From Enterococcus phage VRE9_4, in the sequence record PP680570.1: a stretch of DNA of 64,000 bases; one strand, given 5' to 3'. Below the pieces are notes generated by a model that was given only the letters and a program-made list of their open reading frames with translations, was not told the origin of the DNA and did no database searches. Made by a program: the position numbers and the translations under genes. How positions within the stretch are numbered: the first letter of the stretch is position 1; each line of letters begins with the position of its first letter. Shown here piece after piece: positions 36,830 to 64,000 of this stretch.

Positions 36830-36905
36830 TACCAGGACTGGCTATCCTTTCACCTTATAGCTAGAGGTTGATAAAGATAAAGTGGAATTAACCACAGTTG
36901 GCTGC

Positions 36906-37029
36906 TCCCTAGGTTAAAGAAGATACCTATTGGGTCGGGGCATAAGCTAAGTTAACTAATAAACAACTTCTTTTGGTTAGCTTTTCTCACGAGTGATTGT
37001 TGAGGTTCAATTCCTTCTTAACCTATGGG
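36906..37029 (+). ncRNA. structured RNA module: 12-bp bulged terminal helix enclosing a T-arm-like hairpin (Y-RNA-like candidate)
   Basis: CCCTAGGTTAA (36907-36917) pairs with TTAACCTATGGG (37018-37029) with one bulged A. Internal TGAGG-TTCAATT-CCTTC T-arm mimic and AAGCTAA/TTAGCTT helix. No canonical anticodon arm. Confidence 0.3.
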
Positions 37030-37090
37030 CGGGGCAACACTCTACCGGAGATAAAAATATATAATTTAGTTTAATATTCTCGAGAACGGT

Positions 37091-37189
37091 TGAGATATGG
37101 CGGAAAGGTAGACGCAAGGAGAGTCTCCCCATTGGAGACCCCTGTGCATGACGATGCAGTGTAGGTTCGAATCCTACTATCTCAGTTAA
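37091..37189 (+). ncRNA. class II tRNA-like element with disrupted anticodon region (tRNA mimic or pseudogene)
   Basis: Perfect acceptor TGAGATA/TATCTCA, Leu/Ser-type D-arm TGGCGGAAAGGTAGACGC, variable-arm hairpin TGCATGACGATGCA, T-arm GTAGG-TTCGAAT-CCTAC. Extra nucleotides between the D-stem and the anticodon-like hairpin GTCTCC-CCATT-GGAGAC. Confidence 0.3.
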
Positions 37190-37246
37190 ACAGGGACTTG
37201 AGCTAATTCATTTTAGCCAGTCCTTATCCCGAAAGGGAAAAATAAT

Positions 37247-37275
37247 TTGACATTTTAAGCATAATATGTTATAAT
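37247..37275 (+). promoter_or_regulatory. sigma-A-type promoter (TTGACA-17-TATAAT) for tRNA-Glu
   Basis: Consensus hexamers with 17-bp spacer, 32 nt upstream of the tRNA 5' end. Confidence 0.6.
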
Positions 37276-37306
37276 TATTATATAATAAAGATAAGAAATA
37301 TAAAAC

Positions 37307-37378
37307 GGCTTGTTGGTCAAGAAGTTAAGACGCTCGACTTTCACTCGGGAATCACAGGTGCAAATCCTGTACAAGTCA
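37307..37378 (+). tRNA. tRNA-Glu (anticodon TTC)
   Basis: Cloverleaf: acceptor GGCTTGT/ACAAGTC, anticodon stem CTCGA/TCGGG with loop CTTTCAC, T-arm ACAGG-TGCAAAT-CCTGT. 72 nt. Confidence 0.7.
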
Positions 37379-37466
37379 TTAACATTATTTGAAAAAAATC
37401 TTTCAAAATGTTATAATTAATATGTAAAAAGAAATAAAAAACTTATTTTAAAAGGAGAGATTCATC

Positions 37467-37859
37467 ATGGAAAAACAAACTAAAGCAGATATGTATCGTA
37501 ACGCAGCAAAATTGTTGGAAGTAAATGCTCCTGAATATGCAGAAATGTTATTGGAAGATGCTCAAAGAATTGAAGCTCGTAACGCAAGTCGTCGGAATGT
37601 TGATACTAAAGTTCAAAAAGAAAATAAACACATCGCTGCTTTAGTAATTGAGTTTTTCCATAATGATGCTGAAAATGGAATCGCTTATGACAGTGGCGAA
37701 ATTGCAAATGCTGTTGGAATCGAAGTTTCTCCTCAGAAAATGTCAGCAATTATGCGTTTAGTTGGGGATGAAGTAGATAAGGTAAATCAAGCTACTAACA
37801 ATAAAGATCATATTGGATATAAAAAGAAAGGAACTGAATTAGTTTCTGATGAAAATTAG
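37467..37859 (+). CDS. small DNA-binding-like protein, family B (paralog of 53094..53483 and 58683..59096)
   Basis: Lys-rich centre and C-terminal VSPQKMSAIMRLVGDEV...IGYKKK shared with the two paralogs (TPQKMTPRLKGLVEEG; TPQKLTAIMKPLVDNE). Confidence 0.55.
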   Translation: MEKQTKADMYRNAAKLLEVNAPEYAEMLLEDAQRIEARNASRRNVDTKVQKENKHIAALVIEFFHNDAENGIAYDSGEIANAVGIEVSPQKMSAIMRLVGDEVDKVNQATNNKDHIGYKKKGTELVSDEN

Positions 37860-37880
37860 GACAAAATGTCCTAATTAAAT

Positions 37881-37903
37881 ATCCCCATATTTTATTGGGG
37901 ATA
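37881..37903 (+). terminator. rho-independent terminator
   Basis: ATCCCCA-TATTTTAT-TGGGGAT hairpin after the stop of 37467..37859. A second short hairpin TAGGACAAAATGTCCTA lies immediately before it. Confidence 0.55.
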
Positions 37904-37906
37904 CAC

Positions 37907-37981
37907 CAGGGTATAGGAGAATTTGGTTAATCCGCTGCATTTGGGATGCAGAGATTGTTGGTTCAAATCCAGCTACCCTGA
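37907..37981 (+). tRNA. tRNA-Pro (anticodon TGG)
   Basis: Acceptor CAGGGTA/TACCCTG with C1:G72 (typical of bacterial tRNA-Pro), anticodon stem CTGCA/TGCAG with loop TTTGGGA, T-arm GTTGG-TTCAAAT-CCAGC. Confidence 0.75.
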
Positions 37982-37988
37982 TTGAAAC

Positions 37989-38050
37989 AACGTGTTAGAA
38001 CGTTGGGCGTGAAGGGATTTATCCTATGAAGGGATTTATCCTAACACGTT
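37989..38050 (+). repeat. 10-bp inverted repeat (AACGTGTTAG/CTAACACGTT) enclosing a tandem duplication GAAGGGATTTATCCTA x2
   Basis: Direct reading. Lies between tRNA-Pro and tRNA-Asn. Confidence 0.6.
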
Positions 38051-38057
38051 TAAACAT

Positions 38058-38128
38058 TCACCTATGATGAAATGGTATCATGACTGGCTGTTAACCAGTT
38101 CTTGTAGGTTCGAATCCTGCTGGGTGAG
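38058..38128 (+). tRNA. tRNA-Asn (anticodon GTT)
   Basis: Acceptor TCACCTA/TGGGTGA (one G-U), D-arm ATGA-AATGGTA-TCAT, anticodon stem ACTGG/CCAGT with loop CTGTTAA, T-arm GTAGG-TTCGAAT-CCTGC. Confidence 0.6.
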
Positions 38129-38134
38129 TATTTT

Positions 38135-38217
38135 GCGAGAGTGGCGGAATTGGCAGACGCACTAGATTTAGGATCTAGCGTTTTCATAACGTGTGGGTTC
38201 AAGTCCCACCTCTTGTA
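38135..38217 (+). tRNA. tRNA-Leu (anticodon TAG)
   Basis: Class II tRNA: acceptor GCGAGAG/CTCTTGT (two G-U), D-arm TGGCGGAATTGGCAGACGC, anticodon stem CTAGA/TCTAG with loop TTTAGGA, long variable arm, T-arm GTGGG-TTCAAGT-CCCAC. Confidence 0.7.
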
Positions 38218-38226
38218 TAATAAAAT

Positions 38227-38310
38227 GGAGAGTCCCTGTTGGCTAAAGGAAGAATGTTTTGAAAGCATTTGGCGGTAACACGTCCAAGGGTTCGATTCCC
38301 TTACTCTCCT
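38227..38310 (+). tRNA. tRNA-Ser (anticodon TGA)
   Basis: Acceptor GGAGAGT/ACTCTCC, anticodon stem AATGT/GCATT with loop TTTGAAA, long variable arm, T-arm AAGGG-TTCGATT-CCCTT. Confidence 0.7.
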
Positions 38311-38420
38311 TAAAGAATCTTACAGCAAATATCATATGTTTAATAGGCTAATTCAAATATATTATATAAGATTCTTGAAGTTATTTTTAGCCGATTAAGA
38401 GATAAAGGAGATAAATAACT

Positions 38421-39932
38421 ATGACATTTTTAGATAATTTGAAAGAGGAAGCAACAGTTGGACGCACTTTTAATGGTGCAACCACTTATACTACTTCATT
38501 AAATGCTAATGTTGACTTTTTTGCATTAGGTGGGTCTATGCGATACCAAAATATTGGAGATAAGATTTCATTATTTGAAAAAGCATATAATGAAGACAGA
38601 GCTATTGCATTGAGAAACCTAGTTTATATGCGAGATATTCGTAATGGTGGACTAGGTGAAAGAGATATGTTCCACGCAGGAATTTGGTTCTTAGCTAAAA
38701 AGAAAGATGAAAAAGCACTTCATGTTATCATGGATAATGTAGCTGATTTTAGTCGCTGGGACGATCTATTTTTCATTATGAAACAAGACGAAAAATTGTT
38801 TGATTATGGACTAATTATCATTAAAACTCAGCTTTTGAAAGATATGGATAATATGCGAAAAGGCAAAGAAATTTCTTTATTAGGAAAATGGTTGCCTAAT
38901 ATCAATGCTAAAAACGAAGAACGAAGAGCTTTTGGTCTTAGAGTTGCTAATGCTTTAGGATACACTAAGCCTAGTGATTATAAGGTTTACCGAAAAATGT
39001 TGGTTAACCTAAGAGAAAAATTAGATTTAGTAGAAGTAAAATTAGCTGCTAAAGATTATGACTCAATTGATTTTTCTAAACTACCTTCTCGAGCAGGATT
39101 CAAGTATCGCTCAGCATTTTGGCGCCATATTTCAGATCGCTATTCTGAATTTTTGGAAGCTGTGAATAATGGCGAAGCTACAATGAACGGAAGTTTGGTA
39201 ATGCCAGATGAAATTATTAAAGCTTATGGATATCGAGGGTATTTTTCTTATGGATATTCTTCTTATGAAGAAAAACCTGAATTAGAAGCTGCATGGAAAT
39301 CTCTAAAAGATACTGTTAAGGGTTCTGATGAGAATGTAATTGTAGTCGCAGATACTTCTGCTTCTATGTGGGGTAAACCATGGGAAGTGGCTGAAGGTTT
39401 AGCAATTTATACTGCTGAACGCTTGGAAGGACCGTTCAAGAATAATTTTATCACTTTCTCTAGACGCCCACAATTGGTAACTCTACCAAGTAATTGTTCC
39501 TTACGAGATAAAATGAACGAATATTCTCGTCATTCTATTATCGAAAACACAGATATTGAAGCAGTATTTAATCTTATTTTAGATACTGCTATCAAGAATA
39601 ACACTCCAAAAGAGGAAGTTCCATCTAAAATTATCATTGTTTCAGATATGGAATTTGATCTTCAACGAGGAAATGACGTTACACATTTCAAACTTGCAAA
39701 ATCTCGTTTTGAGAACGCTGGTTATGAAATGCCAGATGTAGTCTTTTGGAATGTAAATGCTAGATTAGGAAACTTACCTGTTCGTTATAATGAACAAGGA
39801 GTAGCATTAGTATCTGGATTCAGCACAAATATTCTAACTTCCATCTTAAATGGGAAACTAGAAACTCCAGAAGCTATGATGTTAGAAACGTTATCTAATC
39901 CAGCATTTGACTTCATTGATGAAGCCATCTAA
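38421..39932 (+). CDS. Ro60/Rsr-like protein (TROVE-like N-terminal region + vWA domain with MIDAS)
   Basis: 503 aa. N-terminal FNGATTYTTSLNANVDFFALGGSMRY...RNGGLGERDMFHAG resembles TROVE-domain motifs. vWA MIDAS VVADTSASMWG and IIIVSDMEFD in the C-terminal half. Confidence 0.5.
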   Translation: MTFLDNLKEEATVGRTFNGATTYTTSLNANVDFFALGGSMRYQNIGDKISLFEKAYNEDRAIALRNLVYMRDIRNGGLGERDMFHAGIWFLAKKKDEKALHVIMDNVADFSRWDDLFFIMKQDEKLFDYGLIIIKTQLLKDMDNMRKGKEISLLGKWLPNINAKNEERRAFGLRVANALGYTKPSDYKVYRKMLVNLREKLDLVEVKLAAKDYDSIDFSKLPSRAGFKYRSAFWRHISDRYSEFLEAVNNGEATMNGSLVMPDEIIKAYGYRGYFSYGYSSYEEKPELEAAWKSLKDTVKGSDENVIVVADTSASMWGKPWEVAEGLAIYTAERLEGPFKNNFITFSRRPQLVTLPSNCSLRDKMNEYSRHSIIENTDIEAVFNLILDTAIKNNTPKEEVPSKIIIVSDMEFDLQRGNDVTHFKLAKSRFENAGYEMPDVVFWNVNARLGNLPVRYNEQGVALVSGFSTNILTSILNGKLETPEAMMLETLSNPAFDFIDEAI

Positions 39933-39970
39933 AATGCCCCCCTTTTCTACCTCTTAATTGAGGTAGTTAC

Positions 39971-40044
39971 GCTTCTTTAGCTCAGTAGGTAGTAGCGCCA
40001 GTCTGAAGAACTGGAGGTCCCTGGTTCGATTCCAGGAGGAAGCA
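39971..40044 (+). tRNA. tRNA-Phe (anticodon GAA)
   Basis: Acceptor GCTTCTT/AGGAAGC, D-arm AGCTCAGTAGGTAGT, anticodon stem CCAGT/ACTGG with loop CTGAAGA, T-arm CCTGG-TTCGATT-CCAGG. Confidence 0.85.
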
Positions 40045-40101
40045 TTAATTCAGCCCAGGAAAGTGCCAATACTATATTCGCTCTCTTGGGCTTTTTCATA
40101 T

Positions 40102-40130
40102 TTGAAAAAATATATTAATCATGTTATAAT
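40102..40130 (+). promoter_or_regulatory. sigma-A-type promoter (TTGAAA-17-TATAAT) for tRNA-Cys
   Basis: Consensus spacing. CGCTCTCTTGGG motif at 40079-40090 just upstream. Confidence 0.55.
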
Positions 40131-40162
40131 TAATCATAAAGTTAATTAAGAACTTTAAAAAT

Positions 40163-40236
40163 GTCCCTGTCGCCAAGAGGCTTAAGGCTATGGATTGCAA
40201 ACCCATAATACGTGAGTTCGAATCTCACCAGGGACT
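40163..40236 (+). tRNA. tRNA-Cys (anticodon GCA)
   Basis: Acceptor GTCCCTG/CAGGGAC, anticodon stem ATGGA/CCCAT (4 bp plus mismatch) with loop TTGCAAA, T-arm GTGAG-TTCGAAT-CTCAC. Confidence 0.7.
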
Positions 40237-40263
40237 TTTAAATAAAAAGGAGTCGATAATGGA

Positions 40264-40560
40264 ATGGATAAGGAAAAAATTAAAGAATCTTGGAGCTATT
40301 GTTTAACCCGAAGCACTAACATCAGAAAATTAGCTTCTAAAAATGAAGCTATTAGGAAAGATAGTTTAGAAAAAAACATTGCTACTAAAACTGCTTTAGA
40401 AATTTTAAAAGAGCAATTAAATGTTTTAATTGAGATGCTGGAGAAAATTGATTTAGAAGAAGAACTTCTCTTAACTTATCAAGAGAAAGCTGCGGTAGAG
40501 TATCTTATTGAAGTATATGAAAATCTTATTATTGTGAAAGAGGGGGAGCAACTTGACTAA
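40264..40560 (+). CDS. hypothetical protein (98 aa)
   Basis: ORF with AAAGGAG RBS. Confidence 0.45.
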   Translation: MDKEKIKESWSYCLTRSTNIRKLASKNEAIRKDSLEKNIATKTALEILKEQLNVLIEMLEKIDLEEELLLTYQEKAAVEYLIEVYENLIIVKEGEQLD

Positions 40561-41194
40561 ATTTATTACAAGTGATTGGCATTTCTTTCATAATAATGCT
40601 TGTGGTCCAGAAGGATTCATTTCTACTAGAAAAAAGTTTTCCTCTGTAGAAGAGATGAACGATAGTATTATTAAAACTATTAATCAAAAGGTTGGTAGAG
40701 ATGATACCATTATTCATTTAGGAGATATTGGCTTTGGTAAACCTAAAAAATTGTTTGAAACATTAGAAAAAATCAATGGACAAATTATTTTAATTAAAGG
40801 AAATCATGATAGTTCAAAATTATTTAAGTATATTGTAAATAATAATTATCATTATCCATATAGTAACCCTAAAAAACGTAAACAATCTCCTGACCGAGTT
40901 AAATTTTTAGTTGAAGAAGTTGGTTTAAGGGAAAAAATGAATGGTAAGGTTTACTATTTAACTCACTACCCATTTCAGTTAGGAGAACAACGTAAAAATA
41001 TGCGTTCAATTTGTGGACATATTCATGAGCAAATTGCTCCTGAGGCTAATATGATTAACGTAGGTATTGATTCTCCTGAAATTACTTCAAAGATTTCTAA
41101 TTTTGGAGAACCTCTTCTTCTGGAAGATGCAATAGAATTAGTTGATAAAAAATGGGAAAAATGGTATAATACTATAAGATTTTTGGGAAGTTAA
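40553..41194 (+). CDS. metallophosphoesterase (calcineurin-like)
   Basis: N-terminal SDWHFFH motif, GDIGFG, GNHD motifs. 213 aa. Confidence 0.65.
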   Translation: MTKFITSDWHFFHNNACGPEGFISTRKKFSSVEEMNDSIIKTINQKVGRDDTIIHLGDIGFGKPKKLFETLEKINGQIILIKGNHDSSKLFKYIVNNNYHYPYSNPKKRKQSPDRVKFLVEEVGLREKMNGKVYYLTHYPFQLGEQRKNMRSICGHIHEQIAPEANMINVGIDSPEITSKISNFGEPLLLEDAIELVDKKWEKWYNTIRFLGS

Positions 41195-41207
41195 TCTTCC
41201 CTTTTAT

Positions 41208-41297
41208 GGAGCTATGACTGAGAGGTTGAAGGTGACGCACTGCTAATGCGTTAGTCGACATAAAGTTGGCTCATGGGTTCGAATCCCATTAGCTCCT
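41208..41297 (+). tRNA. tRNA-Ser (anticodon GCT)
   Basis: Acceptor GGAGCTA/TAGCTCC, anticodon stem ACGCA/TGCGT with loop CTGCTAA, long variable arm, T-arm ATGGG-TTCGAAT-CCCAT. Preceded by terminator hairpin GGGAAG-TTAATC-TTCCC followed by TTTT. Confidence 0.75.
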
Positions 41298-50507: not shown

Positions 50508-51677
50508 ATGAAATTATCACGACTAACTCAAGAAGATGTTATTAAAATTATAGAAGGCACTCCAAGAGCACAATTATTTCAAAAACAAAAATCTGGAGAA
50601 GGGTTCACATTAGGATTCATTCTTAATAGATTGGCTCGTAGTATGGTAGTAGCAGAAGATGGAGAAGAGTTTTCTACTTACCAAACTAATGGAGAAGATT
50701 TTTTAATTGGAGAGCGCTATAATGGAGCTACTAGTTTCTATGTTATGGCTGAAAAAGATGTTGACGGACATGACATCAATATTAGTCAATCTGATAGTAT
50801 CTCTAATTTAATCTTGTATCCCCAAATTTATACTCGTGAAGAAGCTAAGGTAATTGGAATGCGCCTGCGTAATACAATTAATGAATTATTAACTTATAGC
50901 TCTAACCTTACAGTAGAAACGAAAGTAGATCCATATGCAATTATTCAAAAAGGATTATTAAACTATCTAATGCCTAAAGAAAGTAGAGTTATTCCAGGCG
51001 CCTATGAATACATGTACAATAATTTAACAGATAAAAAGATTGGAGATATCGTTAGTCCTTTCTATCTATCTGAAGAAGTACGTGCAGGAGCTCCATTCTC
51101 TGTTAAGAAATCATTAGAAAAGATTGACCCTGAACTTGAAATTAAGAATCATGTTGGCTTATATGCAATCTGGTCATGGTCTCAACTATTTACTTCTATT
51201 GAGGAAACTGGTTGGGAAGGCTCATCTACATTAGATGACCTAGGTATTGATCGAAGCTTTATCCAAAAAACACTTGAAAAATTTGATGAAGATATTAAAA
51301 AACATATTGTAGAGATGCAATACGTATATACTTCACGCAAATATGTGAGCGAAGACCATATACGCGATCATCTGGCTAACCTTCAAGTCCCTACAAAGAT
51401 GGGTCCACTTGAGTATGGAATGGTAGCTAACTTTAGTGGTACTACAGGAGTTTATAATTTAGTATCTATTCTAGGCAAACATACACTCTCTAACCCTCGC
51501 CACATGAGAGGATTCCTTCAACCTGCAACTTATGAAGAAGCAATTGATGATCTAACTATTGGAAATATTATTTCAACTGAACCTTATGGACAAAACAAAG
51601 TTGTCTTTGACAGAGCAAGTAGTAGTGTGTCTCGTCATATCTTAAACAGCTTAAGCTATACTGAAGAAGAAGAATAA
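50508..51677 (+). CDS. hypothetical protein (389 aa)
   Basis: RBS GAAAGGGGA. Followed by terminator GGACCC-CTTGT-GGGTCT plus T7 (51684-51707). Confidence 0.6.
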   Translation: MKLSRLTQEDVIKIIEGTPRAQLFQKQKSGEGFTLGFILNRLARSMVVAEDGEEFSTYQTNGEDFLIGERYNGATSFYVMAEKDVDGHDINISQSDSISNLILYPQIYTREEAKVIGMRLRNTINELLTYSSNLTVETKVDPYAIIQKGLLNYLMPKESRVIPGAYEYMYNNLTDKKIGDIVSPFYLSEEVRAGAPFSVKKSLEKIDPELEIKNHVGLYAIWSWSQLFTSIEETGWEGSSTLDDLGIDRSFIQKTLEKFDEDIKKHIVEMQYVYTSRKYVSEDHIRDHLANLQVPTKMGPLEYGMVANFSGTTGVYNLVSILGKHTLSNPRHMRGFLQPATYEEAIDDLTIGNIISTEPYGQNKVVFDRASSSVSRHILNSLSYTEEEE

Positions 51678-52252
51678 AGGTAAGGACCCCTTGTGGGTCT
51701 TTTTTTGTATTAGGCAGGATAATTTATCCTCTCTGTTTTATTATAACATTTTATACAGAAAAAATCAAGGGGTGCTGAGTTTTAGGAAAAAATCCTGGCT
51801 TTACGAGGCAAGCCTTTAACGGGGAAAAAATCTAGCGTGGTGGTCGACATTAGGCTGGGTTCCGGCCGTGCGCGGCCGGCCAAAAAATAACACCCCATTA
51901 TGAGAGAATTCTAATTTTCACAAATTAAAATAACAGTTTTGGGATTTTGGTTTTTTATTCATGTTATTGAATATTAATTCAAGAAGCTGAAAAGCCCGTC
52001 ATATCAACGTTTTGGGACGGTGTTATTTTATAAATTAAGTTTTTTCTGTTATTTTACGTTTTTTAAATAACAAGAGAATTTTAATTTTTCACAAACTATT
52101 ATTAAAAAATAACAAAAAAATTATTAGAAATCTCTAATTTTACAATTTTAAGAAAAATTTGATTTTCAGAAAATTTCATGAAAACTTTCAAAAATATTTT
52201 CATTTTCATAGATTAAAAAATAGTGAGATTTCTCTCACCATTTTCTCATTTA

Positions 52253-53011
52253 TTAATTTTGAAAACTTGCTTCAAATTCTTTCATATTAATTTCAGCAAT
52301 TTTTTCAGAATGAACTTTTGTAGGGATACGCCAGCACATTCTATTTATTTTTCGATTCATTTTTTTGTGTTGTTTATAGCACCATGCCATTATTGCCACT
52401 TCTATATATACATCTGCCAACCCTGTATGTTCCTCTACAAAATCAGTTGTTTTCATCATCCAATTGTAAGCGACTTCTGCATTAGTTTTTAGGTTACCAG
52501 CTTTTGAATAGTAACCATTTTCAAACGCCCACTTTGGAAAACTTTTCTGCGAAAAAATTGTCTGGCAAGCCATATGCCAAATACAATTTATTTCTAAATT
52601 TTTTCCTACTTCATAAGGGAAGAAAAATGGATAGTTTGTCAATTCTTGCCATGTATTATTTAAAGCTTTGACAAAATCAAAATAAGCGTTATAGGCTGCC
52701 ACCGTTTTGATATTGTATTTTTCTATAATGTTAAGAATAACTCTTCTAACATATCTAAACGGCTTCACTTTCATAATTCCCTGAGAAATTTTTTCACGAT
52801 ACAAAGGCAATTTTGCATAGTAATAAGCGCTACGCATTAAAGCATCATCATCAAAAATTTCTGAAATTGCGAACGAATGTTCTTCATAGATATTCCCTTT
52901 TTTGTCAGCTACAACAAAACCTACATCGTAACATAATGGATTTTTTTCAACATCCCCAGCTGTTTCTACATCTAAAACTAAAATATATTTTTTTCTTTTG
53001 TCAATTTTCAT
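52253..53011 (-). CDS. DEDDh 3'-5' exonuclease (DnaQ-like), copy 1
   Basis: Exo motifs LVLDVETAG (I), AYNAYFDF (II), HTGLADVY (III). Confidence 0.7.
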   Translation of the reverse strand: MKIDKRKKYILVLDVETAGDVEKNPLCYDVGFVVADKKGNIYEEHSFAISEIFDDDALMRSAYYYAKLPLYREKISQGIMKVKPFRYVRRVILNIIEKYNIKTVAAYNAYFDFVKALNNTWQELTNYPFFFPYEVGKNLEINCIWHMACQTIFSQKSFPKWAFENGYYSKAGNLKTNAEVAYNWMMKTTDFVEEHTGLADVYIEVAIMAWCYKQHKKMNRKINRMCWRIPTKVHSEKIAEINMKEFEASFQN

Positions 53012-53093
53012 GCTTACCTTTTTCCACCTTTTTAATAAAATATTTTTTGAAAAAATTAAAGGCTAGGTTTTTACGCCTAGCCCTCGGCGTTTC

Positions 53094-53483
53094 TTAAATA
53101 ATTTTGTAACCCACTTTTTTCTTGTCGCTTGTTGCGATTCCTTTTTCTAGGATTCCTTCTTCTACTAAACCTTTTAGGCGTGGGGTCATTTTTTGTGGAG
53201 TGTAGTCAAACTCTAAAGCTTCATTCACTTCTTGACTTGTGTAAAATGTTTCTGGATCAGCTTCTTCAAAGAACCATTCTTGAATTTTTTGCATGTCTGC
53301 GATTTTTTCTTTGTTTGTCTTGCTTTGGCTAGGTTTGCGGTTAGCGTTACGTTTTTGAGCTTGTTCGCCTTTTTCTACGACAAAATCAATAACTTCTTGC
53401 GGTGCTTTTACATTTGACAAGATACGAGCAACTTCTGCAAATTTTTCAGCTACGACTAGTTTTTCAAATTGTGTTTTTTCCAT
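53094..53483 (-). CDS. small DNA-binding-like protein, family B, copy 2
   Basis: ATG 53483 after AAAAAGGTGGAATTTATC. C-terminal TPQKMTPRLKGLVEEGILEKG...KKVGYKII. Confidence 0.55.
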   Translation of the reverse strand: MEKTQFEKLVVAEKFAEVARILSNVKAPQEVIDFVVEKGEQAQKRNANRKPSQSKTNKEKIADMQKIQEWFFEEADPETFYTSQEVNEALEFDYTPQKMTPRLKGLVEEGILEKGIATSDKKKVGYKII

Positions 53484-53765
53484 GATAAATTCCACCTTTT
53501 TAAAATTTTGTTAGTAAGTTGTTCCCTTACTACTCTTTAAGTATAAACGATTTTCAATTATTTTGCAAGTCTTTTTTTTGCTTTATTAGAAAATTCTCAT
53601 TTAAGCTTAAAGAGTAACAAGTGAACTTCCCTCTTAAGTATATCATACTTTTTTTAACTTTGCAAGTATAAAGTTTATTTATTTTTCAAAGAACTTTTTG
53701 CAATCTCTTTCCTTATCTCTAATACTATTATAGCAAACTTGAAAAGAGATTGCAAGCATAAAGTC

Positions 53766-54392
53766 TTAAATAATTTTGTCAATCGTGATTTTTTTGATTA
53801 GTGTTTCAAGTGTTTGTTTGGTTGGTTCGACTAGTAAACGATAATCAGCATGTTTGAATAAACCGAAATCGCTCGCAGTATCTCCCCACGCCTCTATATA
53901 ACTATATTCGTTTGTGTTTATGTTCCACTGAATGCAATCATCTTTTTGTGATTCTGAAAACATGCCCTTAACCTTTCCAGTGAAACGATCATCTGCTTTC
54001 AAATATTCAGTTGCATAGTATGAACAGCCCAAAAAGTCAGCTAAATGTTTAATTAGAAAATCGCTCGAACCTGTAACAAGAACAACTTCAAAGCCTTGTA
54101 AAATTTTTTCTTTTAAATCGTCCAACGTTTCATACCAATTTTTCCCATTTTCTAAAAATTGAGAAACAAACTCTTTTGCATGCATTTCTTTTTCTGTTTT
54201 CCCTGTTATCTCGTTGCGATAATTTTCGGCAACGGCAACAATCAGACTTTCATTTTTAACATCTTTTTTCCATGCTTTAAAAGAGCCATCATCTTTTATG
54301 ATTCCTTTTTCAATTAAAAAACCCGCATGAGATAAAACAACGCTTTTCCTTGTTAGTGTTCCATCTACATCTGTTAGAATTAAATTTTTCAT
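53766..54392 (-). CDS. HAD-superfamily hydrolase (phosphatase-like)
   Basis: Motif I LTDVDGTLT at the N-terminus. Later VLVTGSS and GD...SD motifs. Confidence 0.65.
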   Translation of the reverse strand: MKNLILTDVDGTLTRKSVVLSHAGFLIEKGIIKDDGSFKAWKKDVKNESLIVAVAENYRNEITGKTEKEMHAKEFVSQFLENGKNWYETLDDLKEKILQGFEVVLVTGSSDFLIKHLADFLGCSYYATEYLKADDRFTGKVKGMFSESQKDDCIQWNINTNEYSYIEAWGDTASDFGLFKHADYRLLVEPTKQTLETLIKKITIDKII

Positions 54393-55209
54393 TTCTTTCG
54401 TCCTCCCTTTATCTTATATACTTATTATAGGGGATAAACGATAAAAAGTAAAGCATTTTACACATTAAAATTATTAAAGTTTAATGAGAATTGTTTCTAA
54501 TTTACACACAATTCACCAGGCGTTATTTTATAATTAAATAACAGCTTTTCTTCGGACACATGTTATTTTATAAACCTGTAAGCGCTTACAAACTGCGTCA
54601 GATCAAGCTTTCAATAGATTTTCAGAAATTTTCATTGTTGTTTCAATAACAGGCAAAAAAATACATGTGAAATAATTCACAAACATAAAATAACACCCAA
54701 GAGCAGAAAAAATAACACACTTTGGCTCGTGCGCACATTCACATTCTCTTGCTCTCTTGGAATGAAAAGGCTGTGAAAGCTTGGTATAATAGGCTTCCTG
54801 GGTTGCGAAAAAATTCACATGCATGGACTTTTGGGATATTAAAATAACATTAAAAAACAATTAAATAACGAGCCAAAAACTTGACAGGGATAAAATAACA
54901 CAGTAAAATGGCGCTCGCCAGCGAGCGGCCGAAAAATAACGTCCTCTATTTGTTATTTTATTCATTTCACAAACTTTAGTTTCAGGATTCTGTTATTTTA
55001 TTTTTGAAAATCATTTTTCAATTTATGAAAATGAAAATGAAAGCTTGATACATCAAGGTTTTGGGAGCCTCGCCCCACAATGTTATTTTATCTTCTTCCT
55101 TTGGGGCTGTTATTTTATTTTATACATTTCATAAACTTTACTTTTAAAATAACACGTATTTCTTTGTGAAAAAATTCACAAGCAAAATTAAAAAAAGATG
55201 AGAAGAATC

Positions 55210-55467
55210 TCATCTTTCAAAAATACGCCCTAAATTATAATCAATGTTATAATTAAAATCTGAATAGTCATTAACAACATCAACAAAGTTGAAAAACTCA
55301 ACTACTATTTTTTCGGCTTCTTCTGGCTCTAAACAACCACTCATAATTTCATCATTCAAAATTAATAAATCTTCAATTTTTCGATATAACACTGAAAACT
55401 CATCTTTATCATATACCTCAACTAAAAAAATTTTTCCTGTAGGCATTTTTACAATTACGTTTCCCAT
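55210..55467 (-). CDS. hypothetical protein (85 aa)
   Basis: Own promoter TTGACT-17-TATACT and RBS on the minus strand (55470-55535). Confidence 0.5.
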   Translation of the reverse strand: MGNVIVKMPTGKIFLVEVYDKDEFSVLYRKIEDLLILNDEIMSGCLEPEEAEKIVVEFFNFVDVVNDYSDFNYNIDYNLGRIFER

Positions 55468-55536
55468 TTAATTCATTCCTTTCCTTTACTATATATATAG
55501 TATAACATATAAGTAAAAGGGAGTCAACCCTTTTAC

Positions 55537-55794
55537 TTAATTTTCTTGATTAAATTTTTCTAATCGTTTTAACAAAATTTTTCCATTTATTTTAGCTATT
55601 AATTTGCCAATTAAACTTTTTGACATAGATAAATTTTTAAATCTGAAATAATAGAAATCACTTCTATTTTCTCCTTTTCTAAATTCATAAGCCAGCTTAC
55701 CATTTAAAATTTGATTGTGGAGAAAAATCTTTACTTCTGGGAAACTCTCAATAATATAATAGTTACCATTGTTTACAAAAACATTCATTTGCAT
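55537..55794 (-). CDS. hypothetical protein (85 aa)
   Basis: Own consensus promoter. See promoter feature 55827..55855. Confidence 0.5.
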   Translation of the reverse strand: MQMNVFVNNGNYYIIESFPEVKIFLHNQILNGKLAYEFRKGENRSDFYYFRFKNLSMSKSLIGKLIAKINGKILLKRLEKFNQEN

Positions 55795-55826
55795 TTAATT
55801 CATTCCTTTCTTAACTTTCTATAATT

Positions 55827-55855
55827 ATTATATCAAGGAAAGGGCTGTTTGTCAA
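55827..55855 (-). promoter_or_regulatory. consensus sigma-A promoter TTGACA-17-TATAAT (minus strand), with the -35 inside a hairpin
   Basis: Minus strand reads AGGGTTGACAAACAGCCCT...TATAAT...AAAGGAATGAATTAAATG. Confidence 0.65.
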
Positions 55856-56154
55856 CCCTTTTCCTCAATTTCTTTGATAATTCTTTTTTCGTCCTCTGGT
55901 AACATTTGAATAACAGTCTTTACTACTATAGTTTTATCTGTTTCATTACAGACATATAAGCGAGAACCGAAAACCCACAATTTAAATTCATTCTCTTCAT
56001 TTTTTGGCGTTTTCTTCCTTACGTTCTTAATTTGAAAATCGTTAAGAATTGCCGAACGAACTTGTCTATTATTCATTTGTTCTTTAGCTACTCTTTCTAA
56101 GTAGCGCTCTTTGGCGTGTTGTGTGATAATAACTTTTTTAGTAAATAAAAGCAT
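55852..56154 (-). CDS. hypothetical protein (100 aa)
   Basis: Own promoter TTGACT-17-TATAAT at 56155-56212 (minus strand). Confidence 0.5.
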   Translation of the reverse strand: MLLFTKKVIITQHAKERYLERVAKEQMNNRQVRSAILNDFQIKNVRKKTPKNEENEFKLWVFGSRLYVCNETDKTIVVKTVIQMLPEDEKRIIKEIEEKG

Positions 56155-56212
56155 TTGTTACAACTCCTTTCTATATTCTTATTATATATTATAAGGGTTG
56201 AAAAGTCAACCC

Positions 56213-56593
56213 TCAACCCTCAAAAAACTTTTTAGTAATTTTTTCCTTTACATTAATTTTTTCAATTTTTTCTTTTGCAGAAAAATCTGTCACGTCAATA
56301 CTGTGGATTCTGTGCTTGTCATTGTCACTAATAAAATTATTCGACCCGAAAAAATTATATACTTCTGTTAATTCATCAGCTTCATTATCCTCAAAAAATT
56401 CGACTAGTTTATAATCATATTCATTTTGAATTTTCCGTTTTCTTTTTGCAACTAAAGAACCTTTATAATATAATTTAACAGTCATATTATTAGTTAATAA
56501 GTTAAATTTCCCAGTGTAAACACAAAGTTCGTCCACTCCAATTAGTTTTACTTTCTTTTCTTCAAATGTTTTAAAAATTTGCATTTCGTTCAC
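56213..56593 (-). CDS. hypothetical protein (126 aa)
   Basis: Own promoter at 56614..56642. Confidence 0.5.
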   Translation of the reverse strand: MNEMQIFKTFEEKKVKLIGVDELCVYTGKFNLLTNNMTVKLYYKGSLVAKRKRKIQNEYDYKLVEFFEDNEADELTEVYNFFGSNNFISDNDKHRIHSIDVTDFSAKEKIEKINVKEKITKKFFEG

Positions 56594-56613
56594 TCCTTAT
56601 TCTTTATATTATT

Positions 56614-56642
56614 ATTATAACAGGTGGTAAAGGGTTTGTCAA
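56614..56642 (-). promoter_or_regulatory. consensus sigma-A promoter TTGACA-17-TATAAT (minus strand)
   Basis: Minus strand reads GGTAAAGGGTTGACAAACCCTTTACC...TATAAT. Confidence 0.65.
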
Positions 56643-57046
56643 CCCTTTACCTTATATTTTTTAGGACTTCCGCCTAAGTCTTCCAGATATCCCTTTTCTT
56701 TCATTTTTTTCAATCTGCTAGGGGTCTGACGGTTTGTGTATTTATCAGCAACTAACAAATGAAAATCTTTATTTTGAAAATACTCTTTGCCACCGAAAGC
56801 AATTTTCACTACATTGTTAAATAAGTCGTCAATTTCATCTTCTGTAATTTTTGCCTTTGCATTTTTAGCTTTCTTGATTTCTTTTTGTTCTTTTTCAAAG
56901 TCTGTTTTCTTGTCACTTTCAAACTTATCAAACTCTCTTAACTCGATAGCTTCGGCAAGATTCAACTCTAATTTTTCAACCATTTCATCAATTAATTTCC
57001 AATCATGAGAAGTAATCTTTTCGCCGTTAGAAAATGTTTCTTGCAT
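56639..57046 (-). CDS. small DNA-binding-like protein (paralog of 21608..21976)
   Basis: ATG 57046 after AAAGGAAAGGAATGG. C-terminal TNRQTPSRLKKMKEKGYLEDLGGSPKKYKVKG. Confidence 0.55.
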   Translation of the reverse strand: MQETFSNGEKITSHDWKLIDEMVEKLELNLAEAIELREFDKFESDKKTDFEKEQKEIKKAKNAKAKITEDEIDDLFNNVVKIAFGGKEYFQNKDFHLLVADKYTNRQTPSRLKKMKEKGYLEDLGGSPKKYKVKG

Positions 57047-57107
57047 ATAACACCATTCCTTTCCTTTACTATATATATAGTATAACATGAAAACTTTTTT
57101 GTGTCAA

Positions 57108-57353
57108 CTATTTTTCACTTTTTTCCCAAAGATAATTATCGCATGCCACAAAAAGACTTTCTAAAAATTTTAAGGCTTCAAAAAAAGGTTTTTGCATATA
57201 GTTTTTATAAATAGGATTTTCGTCAAAAGGCGTTGCCCAATTAGAAACATAATAGACCAATCCTTCCCAATCAGCTTTACCATAAAAATCGCTAATTTGT
57301 TCATCTGTAGAATTTTCTAAAATGGTATTAATATCTTTTTTCATTTTATCCAT
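57108..57353 (-). CDS. hypothetical protein (81 aa)
   Basis: Own promoter TTGATT-17-TATAAT plus AAGGAGGGGA RBS. Confidence 0.5.
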   Translation of the reverse strand: MDKMKKDINTILENSTDEQISDFYGKADWEGLVYYVSNWATPFDENPIYKNYMQKPFFEALKFLESLFVACDNYLWEKSEK

Positions 57354-57579
57354 TTTCGTCCCCTCCTTAACTTTCTATAATAATTATAACAGATAAAACT
57401 AAAAAAATCAAATAATAAATACATGAGTTTTAGGATATTTTTTCTCATTAAACTTTTAGAAAAAATTTTGATTTTTTTCTTGATATAGACCTAATTTTGT
57501 GGTAAAATTTCCGCCCGAAAACGGCAAATTTGCTCACTATTTCACAAGAAAGCTAAATAAAAAAAGGCTTTTCAGCCTT

Positions 57580-57828
57580 TTAAAAATGATTGCCAAGTAT
57601 AGAATACAAACCTCCCCAGCCAATAAAGAAAATATACAAAATACCAAGAAAACCGCTCAAAGTGAAAAATTTACCAGATATAATAATAAAAATAAAATAT
57701 ATAATAGGTATAAAAAACATAGTACCAAACAAAACCGATGATACAATCCCCCAAAAAAATAAGCTTGCTCTTTCTTTGGACTTTCTTTTCTTTCTATTTC
57801 TGATTTCAATTCTATTCATTCTTATCAT
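57580..57828 (-). CDS. membrane protein (82 aa)
   Basis: Basic N-terminus followed by two transmembrane helices. Terminator hairpin at 57563-57584. Confidence 0.5.
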   Translation of the reverse strand: MIRMNRIEIRNRKKRKSKERASLFFWGIVSSVLFGTMFFIPIIYFIFIIISGKFFTLSGFLGILYIFFIGWGGLYSILGNHF

Positions 57829-57869
57829 TCCTTTCTATAGTTATATTATAGCAAATAAAAAGAGTTGTG

Positions 57870-58591
57870 TCAACTCTTTTTATTATTTAAATTTTCTTCG
57901 TTTACAATTCGCCACGCTTGAGGATTAATAGAATAAGCATGAATAGGAATTTCTTTTTCTTGACTTAATAGACAATGTAAAATTTTTGTTTCATCTATGC
58001 TATCCTGTAAAGCAGTATGCTCTTCAATGTAACCTGTATCATTAAACAAAAATTTGTAAGTTGCTTCTGCACCAGTTTGATAATTTCCTTTTTCTGTCAA
58101 AAGGTTGTGAGTTTTTGCGAACTCTTTATATTCTGGCGTATTTAATACAGTATAAGCGGCAACTGGATAAATATCAATCAAAAAGAAATTATCAAAGAAA
58201 TCAAAATCCTTCCCTGAAAAAAAGAAATGAGTTTTTGCAATTACACGAGTGTCAAAACCTAAGTTATAAGCACCAATGTAAGCAACATTATATTTTTTAC
58301 AGTCTTTTTTAAGTTGTCCGATAATGTTCGCCCACTTGCTAACAATGATTCTTTTTTCAAGTAATTTTGTAAAATATATTTTTCCATCAACTACATTTTC
58401 ATCAATCAAGAAAGCACGTTTTTTATTCAACGCTTGAAATTTGAATTGTTCTACCATGTAAGAACGTTCTACTAAAATATTTCCCTTTTTGTCTGAAATA
58501 GCCCAACCAATATCGAAAACTGATTGATAAGGCATTCCCTCGCCTTCTTTTGTTGTTTCAGTATCTAAAATCAAAAATGTTTCTTGCATGT
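57870..58591 (-). CDS. DEDDh 3'-5' exonuclease (DnaQ-like), copy 2
   Basis: Motifs LILDTETT, AYNLGFDT, HTALQDSI. ATG 58591 after AAAAGGTGGAAAATTAC. Confidence 0.7.
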
Positions 58592-58682
58592 AATTTTCCA
58601 CCTTTTCAATAAATTTATTTGTTCCTTAACTACTATTTAAGTATAACAAAAGGGCTTGAGCTTGTCAAGCCCTTTTACTAAC

Positions 58683-59096
58683 TTATTTCAATTTGTAAGC
58701 TACTTTTTTATCCTTTACAACTTTTTCAAATTCTTCATTATCAACTAATGGTTTCATGATTGCCGTCAATTTTTGAGGTGTAGCACCAACAAGCCCAATT
58801 AATTCAGAAATTTCGTGCAATGTTAAGGCTGTTTCTGGTTCTAAGTCAAGAAATGCTTTTCGTACTTTATCCATATTTTCGGCTTTTTCTTTTGCTGTTT
58901 TGCTTACGCCTTTTTTACCACGTTTTGCCTTGTCTTGTTTCACTTGTTGAGTGTGCATAGCTTTCAATTTGTCTAATAATTCAATATCAACTTTTTCAAA
59001 TAAGTCAGTATTTAAAAATGTTTTGTCCTCGATTGCTTTGCTTACTACTTTAACCGCTAATTCCAATGCTTGTGCTTTTGTAATTTGTTTTTCCAT
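58683..59096 (-). CDS. small DNA-binding-like protein, family B, copy 3
   Basis: ATG 59096 after an RBS/leader identical to copy 2 (CATGATAAATTCCACCTTTTTAAAAT on the plus strand). C-terminal TPQKLTAIMKPLVDNE...KKVAYKLK. Confidence 0.55.
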   Translation of the reverse strand: MEKQITKAQALELAVKVVSKAIEDKTFLNTDLFEKVDIELLDKLKAMHTQQVKQDKAKRGKKGVSKTAKEKAENMDKVRKAFLDLEPETALTLHEISELIGLVGATPQKLTAIMKPLVDNEEFEKVVKDKKVAYKLK

Positions 59097-59258
59097 GATA
59101 AATTCCACCTTTTTAAAATATTTTTTTGTAACAATTTCTTATTACATTCTTAGTATAAAACATTTTGATTTGTTTGTCAAGTGTTTTATACTAATTTCTA
59201 ACAAGAAATTTTTGTTGTTTTCTTTATACTCTTATTATAGAGTATTGAGAAAGGCTTG

Positions 59259-59462
59259 TCAAGCCTTTTCCCAATTTTCTTTTAAGAAAGTAACAACGCT
59301 ATAACTTGTAATAGTTGTTAAGGCAATAAGTAACAAGCTTTGAATAGAGAAGAAACCAGTGTACAAAATAGCTTGATAAGTAAAGTAGAATGGTACTAAG
59401 ATACCTCCAGCGACTAAAATTCCTACAAAAACAATTAATAATACTAATTCAGATAATTTCAT
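59259..59462 (-). CDS. small membrane protein (67 aa)
   Basis: Two transmembrane helices. Own promoter. Confidence 0.5.
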   Translation of the reverse strand: MKLSELVLLIVFVGILVAGGILVPFYFTYQAILYTGFFSIQSLLLIALTTITSYSVVTFLKENWEKA

Positions 59463-60146: not shown

Positions 60147-60557
60147 TTATAAGTTTTTCCATTTTTTTCTTTGTTCTCGATAGGTTTTTGCTGTTTGCTC
60201 TTCAGTATCATGATGAGCAACCATGTTTGCGCCGATGTTAGTTCCTTGAATTGTTTTTGTTTGTTTGATTTGTGCTAATTCATCTAAGTTTTTTTGCGAG
60301 TATTTTTCAACAGTTTTATATAAACTAGCCTCATTTAAAATTTTAATAACTTTTTTTCGTTTTAAGAAGAAAGTTTTGTATTCTTCTTCCTCTAATCTGA
60401 TAAGCTGAATTATTAAATTATCATCAAACCAATCCAACCTTACCTTTAAAACATTATACCCAAAGCATTTTTCAGGACTTACCTCGATCAATTTTACATC
60501 GTCTTCTTTTTTATAATGATATTTTTTGATATATTCTAAATCATTCATTCTTGTCAC
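60147..60557 (-). CDS. hypothetical protein (136 aa)
   Basis: Promoter TTGACT-17-TATAAT plus AAGGAGTG RBS. Confidence 0.5.
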   Translation of the reverse strand: MTRMNDLEYIKKYHYKKEDDVKLIEVSPEKCFGYNVLKVRLDWFDDNLIIQLIRLEEEEYKTFFLKRKKVIKILNEASLYKTVEKYSQKNLDELAQIKQTKTIQGTNIGANMVAHHDTEEQTAKTYREQRKKWKNL

Positions 60558-60721: not shown

Positions 60722-61144
60722 TTACTTAAATTCATTATATAAATTTTCTAATTCAATTTCTTTCTTTTTCTGTTTCTCTCTATCTTCCACACAATAAAAC
60801 ATATCTCTTACAAAAGGTAAGTCAATCAATCTGAGATTTCCTTTTTTATATTCTGATAACATTAATAAATTTTCTTTTTCTGTATCTTCTTCCCACTTAT
60901 CTGTATAATGATATTTTTCAGAATAAAGGATTTCTACTTTCTTCTTTTTTGAAAATATTTTTTTCTTTTCTCTAAAATTCATTAGTGAGATTTTAAATAA
61001 TCCTGTTCTCCATTGAGAAATAAAGACATTTTCAATTATAAGAAATTTATATCCCTCTATCTCTTCATGTAATTCTACTATCGCAGTTTTTTCATCTAAT
61101 TTCTTGATATATTCTTTTTGTTCTACTGTAAGCATTTCATTCAC
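60722..61144 (-). CDS. hypothetical protein (140 aa)
   Basis: Own promoter and AAGGAGTG RBS. Confidence 0.5.
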   Translation of the reverse strand: MNEMLTVEQKEYIKKLDEKTAIVELHEEIEGYKFLIIENVFISQWRTGLFKISLMNFREKKKIFSKKKKVEILYSEKYHYTDKWEEDTEKENLLMLSEYKKGNLRLIDLPFVRDMFYCVEDREKQKKKEIELENLYNEFK

Positions 61145-61196: not shown

Positions 61197-61523
61197 TTAT
61201 CTTCTTAAAATTTTTCCAACAAACACATCTTGTCTTATTTGTTCAGCTTGTTCAAGATATATTAATTCAAATGAATCTTTATAGATACGATGATTTTTTA
61301 TATCTAAAGTCTTTTTTGTTGAGAAAAAAGCATCTAAAGCATCTTTTGAAGCCTCTGTTATATCTTCATCATAGAAATCTCCTTTCAATTGTTCTTTTAT
61401 ATATTCTGCAAAATCTTTATAAAGCGTTGTAATTAAAAGATGATGATTGCGTAAACGTTTTTCAGTTCTTTCAACCTCTTTCTTCATTTCATTAATTTTT
61501 TCTTTCATTTCTTTTTCTAGCAT
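61197..61523 (-). CDS. hypothetical coiled-coil protein (108 aa)
   Basis: Own promoter and AAGGAGTG RBS. Confidence 0.5.
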   Translation of the reverse strand: MLEKEMKEKINEMKKEVERTEKRLRNHHLLITTLYKDFAEYIKEQLKGDFYDEDITEASKDALDAFFSTKKTLDIKNHRIYKDSFELIYLEQAEQIRQDVFVGKILRR

Positions 61524-62896: not shown

Positions 62897-63303
62897 TTTG
62901 AATACCTCTTTTCAATAGGTTTTAGGGCTATTCATCTAACCCCTATAAATAGTATAATATATAAAACCCTAATTGTCAAATGATTTTTAACATTAGACAA
63001 AATATTTTTATATACATTATGTATGTATATATGCATTCGATAACAGATGTTATTTTAATAGACTATCGAGAGATGTAAGCGCTTACAAAAGATTTACTTA
63101 AACAGATGAATTGAAAGCGCTTTATTTTACGTTTTAAGAGCTTTTCATATTATTTGGCATAATTATCTATTAAGCATTATAAAACCCAAGAGAAGAGCAA
63201 AGAAGTGTATTGTGGGCGCTATTATTAACTTTTATTAAGGTGTTAGAATAAATAGTCTTATATAAAATAACACTTATCAGTTATTATAACAAGTGTTATG
63301 TTT

Positions 63304-63527
63304 GGTGGCAGAGATGTGATGAGCTAATACATTGTGAAACATTTCACACATGTACAATCATTCATATAATAATTTATTCATATGTATGAATGAACAGATG
63401 TACATATATTCATATGTGGCAGAGATGTGATGAGCTAATACATTGTGAAACATTTCACACATGTACAATCATTCATATAATAATTTATTCATATGTATGA
63501 ATGAACAGATGTACATATATTCATATG
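63304..63527. repeat. 111-bp tandem direct repeat (2 near-identical units) with degenerate additional units downstream
   Basis: Units start GTGGCAGAGATGTGATGAGC at 63304 and 63415 and are identical through ...TTCATATG. Partial copies begin at about 63767 and 63877. Confidence 0.8.
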
Positions 63528-64000
63528 TACTCACTGCCAGTCTGTGAGCATTGTCACAGATGTAAGCGCTTACAACTCATTGACGCAAGGTGTCAAGCAA
63601 AGATACTTGGCGCACATATGTTCGGCTAGCTCCCAGCAACTTGATGAATAACAAAGGTTATTTAATTTTATAGTTCGGCATTTAAAATAACAAGTGTTAT
63701 TTAAACATACTTAAATACTTGAACAGATGTACATATGAACATATATTCATATATTGTGGCAGTAGGTACAGATGGACTAGACCAATCGTAACCCTAAACG
63801 ATTGTGAAATATTTCACAAGGATTCCACTCAACGTTAGAAATTAGTTGATATTATTAAATAACAAGTGTTATTTATGGTGGCAGCAACATAGACGAGTGT
63901 TATTTAATTAATAAGGGAGTTAGTGGTAAGGGATGCAGAGGTCGTTATTTAATTAGGTCAATAAGTTTTTACAATAGTAATAAAAGGCTTGTTATCATTA

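Follow-up and report, generated by a model that had tools for sequence, protein, structure and literature searches.

Two diverged pairs of genes, each joining a small protein with a predicted winged-helix fold to a putative exonuclease of the DEDDh type, are encoded in the leftward early arm of Enterococcus phage VRE9_4 (PP680570.1), of which a stretch of 64,000 nucleotides (hereafter the window) was analysed. We refer to them as Small1-Exo1 and Small2-Exo2 (Table 1). The existence of both pairs is confirmed and they are conserved in close relatives; their products are divergent members of known folds, and a function can be proposed for them from their context. The initial annotation of the window had described a duplicated two-gene module, composed of a lysine-rich DNA-binding protein and a DnaQ-like nuclease with identical leaders, and had suggested a specialised role such as the degradation of host nucleic acid or of signalling nucleotides. 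The observation itself holds with the exception of one coordinate: Exo1, Small1 and Small2 lie where they had been placed, but Exo2 starts at the ATG at 58589 and not at 58591, which is out of frame and would give 17 stops. The longer GTG-started versions proposed by the open reading frame (ORF) finder begin within the Shine-Dalgarno sequence. As for the interpretation, the DEDDh assignment, the winged helix, the early setting and the absence of a link to the polymerase stand, whereas the tight module, the cyclic substrates and the special status of the leader are weakened or unsupported.

Exo1 and Exo2 are homologous but diverged, with 29% identity across 240 aa (E=4e-20) in the pairwise alignment that had been suggested as a check. 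Each carries the full D-E-D-D-h set, in the form of DVET, YNAYFD and HTGLAD in Exo1 and of DTET, YNLGFD and HTALQD in Exo2, and the claim that the three motifs are intact in both copies is borne out by an alignment of 101 relatives. Within this alignment, D14 and E16 of the Exo I motif (DxE) are found in 99 members, the remaining two being gapped, while N108 and D112 of Exo II (NxxxD) and H195 and D200 of Exo III (Hx4D, which defines the 'h' subtype) are present in all 101; K67 and E179 are likewise invariant. The AlphaFold2 (AF2) model of Exo1, with a predicted local distance difference test (pLDDT) score of 92.8, adopts an RNase H-like alpha/beta fold, for which Foldseek returned 67 PDB matches at E<=1e-3 with a probability of 1.0. 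The 50 matches listed are mostly DnaQ-fold exonucleases or proteins with that domain, among them the DnaQ domain of Cas2-DnaQ (PDB 8h18), Orn, ERI3, ExoI, the exonuclease domain of DinG, REXO2, TREX1 and RNase T (E 2e-5 to 1e-3; template-modelling (TM) score on the target 0.5-0.69; identity 12-16%). In the viral structures of BFVD two proteins are close to Exo1, the better of which, from a gut siphovirus, is named 'Exoribonuclease 3' (TM 0.84). Motifs and fold together support the view that both proteins are DEDDh-type exonucleases, as had been proposed, belonging to a divergent branch without a curated model. Pfam and NCBIfam gave no family at E<=1 for either protein, including RNase_T (PF00929) and the dnaQ models; the sole exonuclease match among the PADLOC models was non-significant (E=0.07), and a sequence search of PDB chains with both exonucleases and the family profile gave no meaningful match. 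Six proteins were scanned in all, and for none of them did Pfam, NCBIfam or PADLOC offer a family of use. Both exonucleases match PHROG 20187 end to end, a group that, like PHROG 19455 and 30233 matched by the small proteins, has no functional annotation. They differ further from the DnaQ-like superfamily by a helical insert between Exo I and Exo II (approximately residues 50-100), a C-terminal helix, the invariant K67 and E179, and four cysteines (C143, C149, C211 and C226) that occur in about two thirds of the family. In Exo1 these cysteines could form a structural zinc or iron-sulphur site; Exo2 has none of the four.

The small proteins form a second family. Small1 and Small2 align over their C-terminal ~90 aa with 37% identity (E=3e-11), and both have the MEK start and the TPQK[ML]T...LV[ED] ending noted initially. 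The solo paralogue Small3, located elsewhere in the window, is confirmed by PHROG and profile matches. A fourth, more distant paralogue, Small4, is possible: its link to Small1 is a weak cross-match (E=0.009), the search with the small-family profile did not detect it, and its start is placed at methionine 15 (M15) because of the position of its promoter. The description of the family as lysine-rich is right by composition (14-19% lysine) but not in the sense of basic proteins, since only Small2 is basic, with an isoelectric point (pI) of 9.2, whereas Small1 (pI 5.7) and Small3 (pI 5.25) are net acidic and confine their basic segment to the central linker. In the AF2 model of Small1 (pLDDT 86 overall, >90 in the winged-helix part), a short helix and two long helices precede a lower-confidence linker, after which helices 55-73, 83-90 and 96-108 and strands 112-116 and 124-128 form a domain with the H1-b-H2-H3-hairpin wing topology of MarR-type winged helix-turn-helix (wHTH) proteins. 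It superposes on the DNA-binding domains of ZitR, MepR and MarR with a root-mean-square deviation of 2.2-3.0 Å over 66-68 residues, and on Z-alpha with 1.6 Å over 70 residues, with weak Foldseek E-values (best 4.5e-3). Unlike MarR-type proteins, Small1 ends at the wing, lacking the C-terminal dimerisation helices, and has an N-terminal helical hairpin and a basic linker instead. Pfam gave no match for the small proteins of the window, no curated wHTH or MarR threshold being reached; among 51 diverse family members a minority have weak matches, mostly to wHTH models (TrmB, MarR_2, HTH_24, Crp_2), the best of them sub-threshold (HTH_24, 3.8e-5). The model, the superpositions and these weak matches are all consistent with the winged-helix fold that had been surmised. 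With HMMER, 900 relatives were detected among 1.84 billion representatives, and the 150 matches listed measure 97-174 aa and are nearly all aligned over most of their length. Winged helices also serve protein-protein contacts. Nucleic-acid binding by the small proteins is therefore plausible in view of the modelled fold, but it is not assured because Small1 and Small3 are net acidic, and the term 'DNA-binding partner' can be retained only with this reservation.

Both pairs lie within a 7.4-kb region that is 94% identical to Enterococcus phages VRE9_1, VRE9_2, VRE9_3, EF1, EF5 and H1, whose genomes measure 138-142 kb. Nearly every gene under this match is labelled hypothetical in GenBank; the Exo1 counterpart of phage H1 is labelled 'exodeoxyribonuclease'. 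EF1 has been described as distantly related to the phAss-1 group, siphovirus-like gut phages whose signature gene encodes DNA polymerase III alpha (PMC10607447), and apart from this phAss-1 paper the literature on these phage accessions gave no account of the small and exonuclease genes. Two ribonucleotide reductases, of classes Ia and III, are encoded in the window together with an endolysin and a cluster of tRNAs, and small early genes without annotation surround both pairs. Twelve promoter-like sites match the consensus at 11-12 of 12 positions, 11 of them on the minus strand, and 18 terminators were found against 3.3 expected; units of terminator plus promoter recur along the leftward arm. 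This richness in promoters and terminators agrees with the 'host-takeover region' of the initial annotation. Upstream of Small1, a scan identified tandem sigma-A-type promoters, and two further TTGCAA-17-TATACT sites were seen by eye and are unscored (53665-53637 and 53568-53540). A terminator-like hairpin follows, and as no promoter is seen in the sequence between this hairpin and Exo1, the latter is probably expressed by read-through. Small2 is preceded by two consensus promoters and followed by a terminator hairpin that overlaps a further promoter, which would give Exo2 its own transcription start.

The two small genes begin with the same translation-initiation block. The 26-mer at 53481 and 59094 occurs exactly twice, with none expected in 100 shuffles, and the identity is longer than first described, extending to 32 nt. 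The Shine-Dalgarno sequence, spacer and start are kept in orthologues of only ~50% protein identity (L009 and L010 of the loci surveyed below), and the block is partly conserved in Small3 and Exo2. The predicted 5' leader hairpins of the small genes are weak (z -0.9 to -1.8), and none is predicted for Exo2. Another family of small early paralogues with common leaders is encoded at 56213-56593, 60147-60557, 60722-61144 and 61197-61523; it has no Pfam match, and a leader of 43 nt is 95% identical between 56581 and 61132. As a second set of paralogues also has a common leader, leader sharing is general in the early arm, and the identity cannot be taken as a special mark of the two pairs. It is most simply explained by selection for strong translation initiation or by gene conversion among paralogues.

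Table 1. Genes and expression signals of the two pairs and of related or adjacent genes (positions in the window).
Feature	Coordinates	Strand	Details
Exo1, putative DEDDh (DnaQ-fold) exonuclease, 252 aa	52253..53011	-	phrog_20187 E=1.7e-138; gene that closes the leftward early arm
Terminator-like hairpin between Small1 and Exo1	53058..53085	-	10 pairs, then T-rich tail
Small1, predicted winged helix, 129 aa	53094..53483	-	phrog_19455; AF2 and Foldseek
First 32-nt translation-initiation block	53475..53506	-	Shine-Dalgarno AAAGGTGG and spacer, then ATG plus two codons; same sequence as 59088-59119
Tandem sigma-A-type promoters upstream of Small1	53540..53782	-	scan: 53782-53755, 53755-53727
HAD-family phosphatase, 208 aa	53766..54392	-	PF12710 E=2e-9; immediately upstream of the Small1-Exo1 pair
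Small4, possible distant small paralogue	56639..57046	-	phrog_20625; probable start M15
Exo2, putative diverged DEDDh paralogue, 239 aa	57870..58589	-	phrog_20187 E=1e-129; motifs; alignment to Exo1
Promoter TTGACA-17-TATACT, 11/12	58640..58668	-	overlaps terminator hairpin after Small2
Small2, basic paralogue of Small1, 137 aa	58683..59096	-	phrog_30233; family profile
Second 32-nt translation-initiation block	59088..59119	-	identical to 53475-53506
Two tandem consensus promoters of Small2	59152..59262	-	59262-59234, 12/12; 59180-59152, 11/12
Small3, solo paralogue	37467..37859	+	phrog_19455 E=1.6e-67; profile E=4.9e-44; between tRNA-Glu and tRNA-Pro

The exonuclease family is sizeable. Exo1 has at least 884 relatives in a collection of 5.8 billion protein clusters (90% identity), and none of the 120 relatives listed has a Pfam domain. 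The family was found at 374 loci in IMG/VR and at 10 loci in 185,579 species genomes, all of them on contigs of metagenome-assembled genomes, and from this distribution it is apparently restricted to phages. Two members lie within 10 kb of each other at about 22 of the 91 loci surveyed, including phage phAss-1, so that the maintenance of two diverged copies, as asserted initially, recurs in distant phages. Between the same two phages the Exo2 orthologues are 63% identical and the Exo1 orthologues 81%, Exo2 thus diverging about twice as fast. An exonuclease tree had also been proposed as a check, and its outcome is mixed: in a neighbour-joining (NJ) tree Exo2 clusters with the second copies of other phages, but the divergent copies score at least as well against members of the main clade as against one another. 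This disagreement makes long-branch attraction likely, and we rejected an ancient 'type 1 / type 2' paralogy. The two pairs would most likely stem from an old duplication of a two-gene segment, with a later and faster divergence of Exo2.

The early arm contains two paralogous units, in each of which strong sigma-A-type promoters stand before a small gene, followed by a terminator hairpin and a stand-alone DEDDh exonuclease gene. From the enzymology of the superfamily, both enzymes would be metal-dependent 3'->5' exonucleases releasing 5'-mononucleotides from free 3' ends. The layout suggests that the small proteins would be abundant early and the enzymes present at a lower level, Exo1 by read-through and Exo2 from its own promoter; the small proteins would probably act on their own, as regulators or as DNA- or protein-binding factors of the same expression class, and not as obligate subunits. 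As to what these enzymes do, we favour an early, replication-independent breakdown of host DNA or RNA fragments that would supply nucleotides to the large salvage set of the phage, a reading held tentatively and at somewhat less than an even chance. Its context comprises the two ribonucleotide reductases of the window, a thymidine kinase, a guanylate kinase and a dUTPase annotated in H1, and the HAD phosphatase located in the same block as Small1-Exo1. The nearest functional analogy is exonuclease A (DexA) of phage T4, an early, non-essential 3'-5' exonuclease that aids host DNA digestion; it too is a stand-alone phage DEDDh enzyme of ~230 aa unlinked to a polymerase. The exonucleases have no sequence-family match to DexA, a DexA homologue is only a remote fold match of Exo1 (rank 46 in BFVD, TM 0.41-0.49), and T4 is not known to have a paired winged-helix gene; the likeness is best regarded as one of function only, not of family membership. 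A similar parallel is offered by the pre-early host-DNA-degradation set of phage T5 (Dmp, PF26880), as a distant homologue of the exonucleases (L105) is directly preceded by a T5-type dNMPase of PF26880, whereas the HAD phosphatase of the window matches PF12710 and not PF26880.

Several points weigh against the proposal of two duplicated, separately acting units for host nucleic-acid turnover. The link to phosphatases is thin, the HAD gene being clade-confined (it is conserved in L009, L093, L103 and L104 only) and the dNMPase neighbour seen once, and a general phosphatase-exonuclease linkage was rejected. The fold neighbours of Exo1 include both DNases (ExoI, TREX1, DnaQ) and RNases (Orn, ERI3, RNase T), so that the substrate cannot be read from the fold. 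The NJ grouping of the divergent copies is not backed by the pairwise scores, the net acidic Small1 and Small3 fit DNA binding poorly, and the two pairs may yet be functional partners, two of the three clear small paralogues standing directly upstream of the two exonucleases. Separately, the EF1 counterpart of the HAD gene (ASZ76769.1, L001 7855-8481) is labelled 'diguanylate cyclase/phosphodiesterase (GGDEF & EAL domains) with PAS/PAC sensor(s)' in GenBank; its Pfam matches are to HAD-family hydrolase models only and the label was discarded.

A different role would be counter-defence, one or both exonucleases destroying immune nucleic acids that have a free 3' end, with the fast second copy tracking host variation. 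Candidate targets would be the multicopy single-stranded DNA (msDNA) of retrons, other reverse-transcribed defence DNA, guide RNAs or linear oligonucleotide signals. We consider this unlikely. In its favour, the family is accessory, apparently phage-restricted and located in early arms among small unannotated genes, varies in copy number and includes Exo2, which diverges about twice as fast as Exo1. On the other hand, the gene context points to no target, a literature search found nothing relevant on DEDDh enzymes in phage counter-defence, and PADLOC gave no match, although that library covers defence systems and not anti-defence proteins. Cyclic signals are a poor target for such a nuclease: DEDDh enzymes act from a free 3' end and cannot open cyclic nucleotides, which makes the degradation of cyclic oligonucleotides, as suggested at first, chemically implausible.

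An RNA-directed role, either the 3' trimming of phage tRNA precursors or the decay of host mRNA and nanoRNA, is in our estimate rather improbable. The closest folds include those of Orn, ERI3, REXO2 and RNase T, a related viral protein bears an exoribonuclease name, and the window contains at least nine tRNAs, with Small3 inside their cluster. However, the fold does not separate RNases from DNases, names of this kind are assigned automatically in databases, and the exonuclease genes lie 14-20 kb from the tRNA cluster. This cluster (36754-41297) consists of nine tRNA genes interleaved with Small3, a calcineurin-like phosphoesterase and a 503-aa DUF2828/DUF7788 protein, the latter with a weak VWA match and the PHROG label 'RNA-binding protein'. 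Rfam scans detected only tRNAs, apart from a sub-threshold ctRNA match at 51677-51748, which was the sole match in 51600-55300.

The adjacency of small and exonuclease genes invites the idea of a two-component system, in which each winged-helix protein would bind the downstream exonuclease and target or regulate it, for instance at specific DNA sites. Both pairs are conserved within the clade: EF1, H1 and two metagenomic loci (L103 and L104, with Exo2 ~65% identical) keep the order Small, Exo2, then Small4 and HAD, then Small and Exo1. In all, 91 loci were surveyed, 80 of which had been fetched from IMG/VR through the exonuclease alone; an IMG/VR scan with the small-family profile gave a single locus, a contig 100% identical over Small1, the back-translated pattern being too specific, and the counts of small genes come instead from local hidden Markov model searches of the loci fetched through the exonuclease. 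One to four small-family genes are present within 5 kb of an exonuclease at 61 of the 91 loci, such genes are found within that distance at seven of the ten independent genome-derived loci as well, and the order Small then Exo is found again in a few distant phages (L077, L082 and L101). Yet the remaining 30 loci have an exonuclease and no detectable small gene nearby, and of 99 exonuclease genes only seven are preceded, and ten followed, by a small gene at 300 bp or less. No fusion to another domain is seen among the best 150 of the 900 small-family relatives. Moreover, the terminator after each small gene and the separate promoters uncouple expression and indicate that these are not tight operons. 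Such a two-component system is on balance distinctly unlikely. What remains of the 'two-gene module' is a conserved synteny within one clade; the pairs are better described as belonging to two families that are common to the early arm across a broad group of large Bacillota phages and whose pairing is fixed in a single clade.

We also doubt that the exonucleases serve in trans as epsilon-like proofreading subunits for the DnaE-type polymerase III alpha of these phages, a role that was likewise set aside initially. In favour of such a role, a DEDD domain is lacking from the H1 polymerase, whose 1284 aa comprise PHP, NTPase, finger and HhH domains; the epsilon subunit of E. coli is of similar size to the exonucleases (~240 aa), and Exo2 has a weak match to phrog_192, a 'DNA polymerase exonuclease subunit' (E=7e-5). 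EF1 is moreover grouped with gut phages that have polymerase III alpha as a signature gene (PMC10607447), and the exonuclease family is also present in phAss-1. Against this, the polymerase gene of H1 lies ~65-70 kb from the exonucleases, which are found in an early arm driven by host-type promoters and not in the replication module, and no polymerase gene occurs among the ten largest ORFs of the window. The PHP motifs of the H1 polymerase (HxH, DH, E, H, C, DxH) appear intact by eye, a state that in DnaE-type polymerases goes with proofreading in cis. The exonucleases are present in two copies and are variable in presence, and they match neither the dnaQ models of NCBIfam nor RNase_T of Pfam. 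By tblastn the family was not found in the closest relatives of the polymerase, namely SPbeta (YorL, 38.7%) and Enterocloster phages. The gene for the DnaE-type polymerase is continuous in H1 and VRE9 but broken into three parts in EF1 and EF5, where the annotation places an HNH homing endonuclease between the parts. Separately, inspection by eye showed no clamp-binding motif of the QxxLxF type in the C-terminus of Exo1 or Exo2.

The non-coding stretches around the pairs contain two kinds of repeated element. The 11-mer TGTTATTTTAT forms clusters in both orientations at 51882-52114, 54521-55154 and 63048-63908, with 38 matches at one mismatch or fewer against 11.2 expected; all nine exact copies fall within these three stretches. 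In L009 and L093 similar arrays occupy non-coding gaps on both sides, before Small1 and after Exo1, and in L103 a non-coding gap before Small1; distant phages lack them. Arrays for protein binding, iterons or a promoter-like element would be possible explanations. A palindrome resembling an operator, TTGTGAAA-N2-TTTCACAA (TGTGAA-N4-TTCACA), is found at 54665, 54803, 55164, 63332, 63443 and 63802, giving 11 strand-matches against 2.1 expected, with all six sites in the non-coding stretches of TGTTATTTTAT. It is kept in L009, L010, L093, L103 and L104 and is a candidate binding site of a dimeric regulator. Palindromes and arrays flank the HAD-Small1-Exo1 block, and this is conserved in relatives. 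That the small proteins are adaptors which recognise specific DNA, with these palindromes and arrays as candidate sites, and recruit or license the adjacent exonucleases in a sequence-targeted system specific to phages, for host takeover or counter-defence, the cysteine-bearing type and the fast-evolving, cysteine-less type having split roles or forming a heterodimer, is in our judgement very improbable. Two further features of the region can be mentioned. A perfect tandem duplication of a 111-bp unit, with one palindrome per copy, extends over 63305-63528, where the leftward early arm has its upstream end and the GC skew flattens; possible readings are an origin, a regulatory region or a feature of the genome end. 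Downstream of Exo1, the convergent intergenic region includes a short, very GC-rich segment (51820-51890, GGCCGGCCGCGCACGGCCGG...) in a genome that is otherwise ~30% GC.

The present work provides a fold-level assignment and a neighbourhood pattern for two sizeable families of phage proteins that had no functional annotation, which is an advance in annotation and not a new principle. The two families co-localise in the early arms of large gut Bacillota phages, including phages studied against vancomycin-resistant Enterococcus. If a role in host nucleic-acid turnover or in counter-defence is true, these genes would have an effect on the host range and the phage yield of therapeutic candidates.

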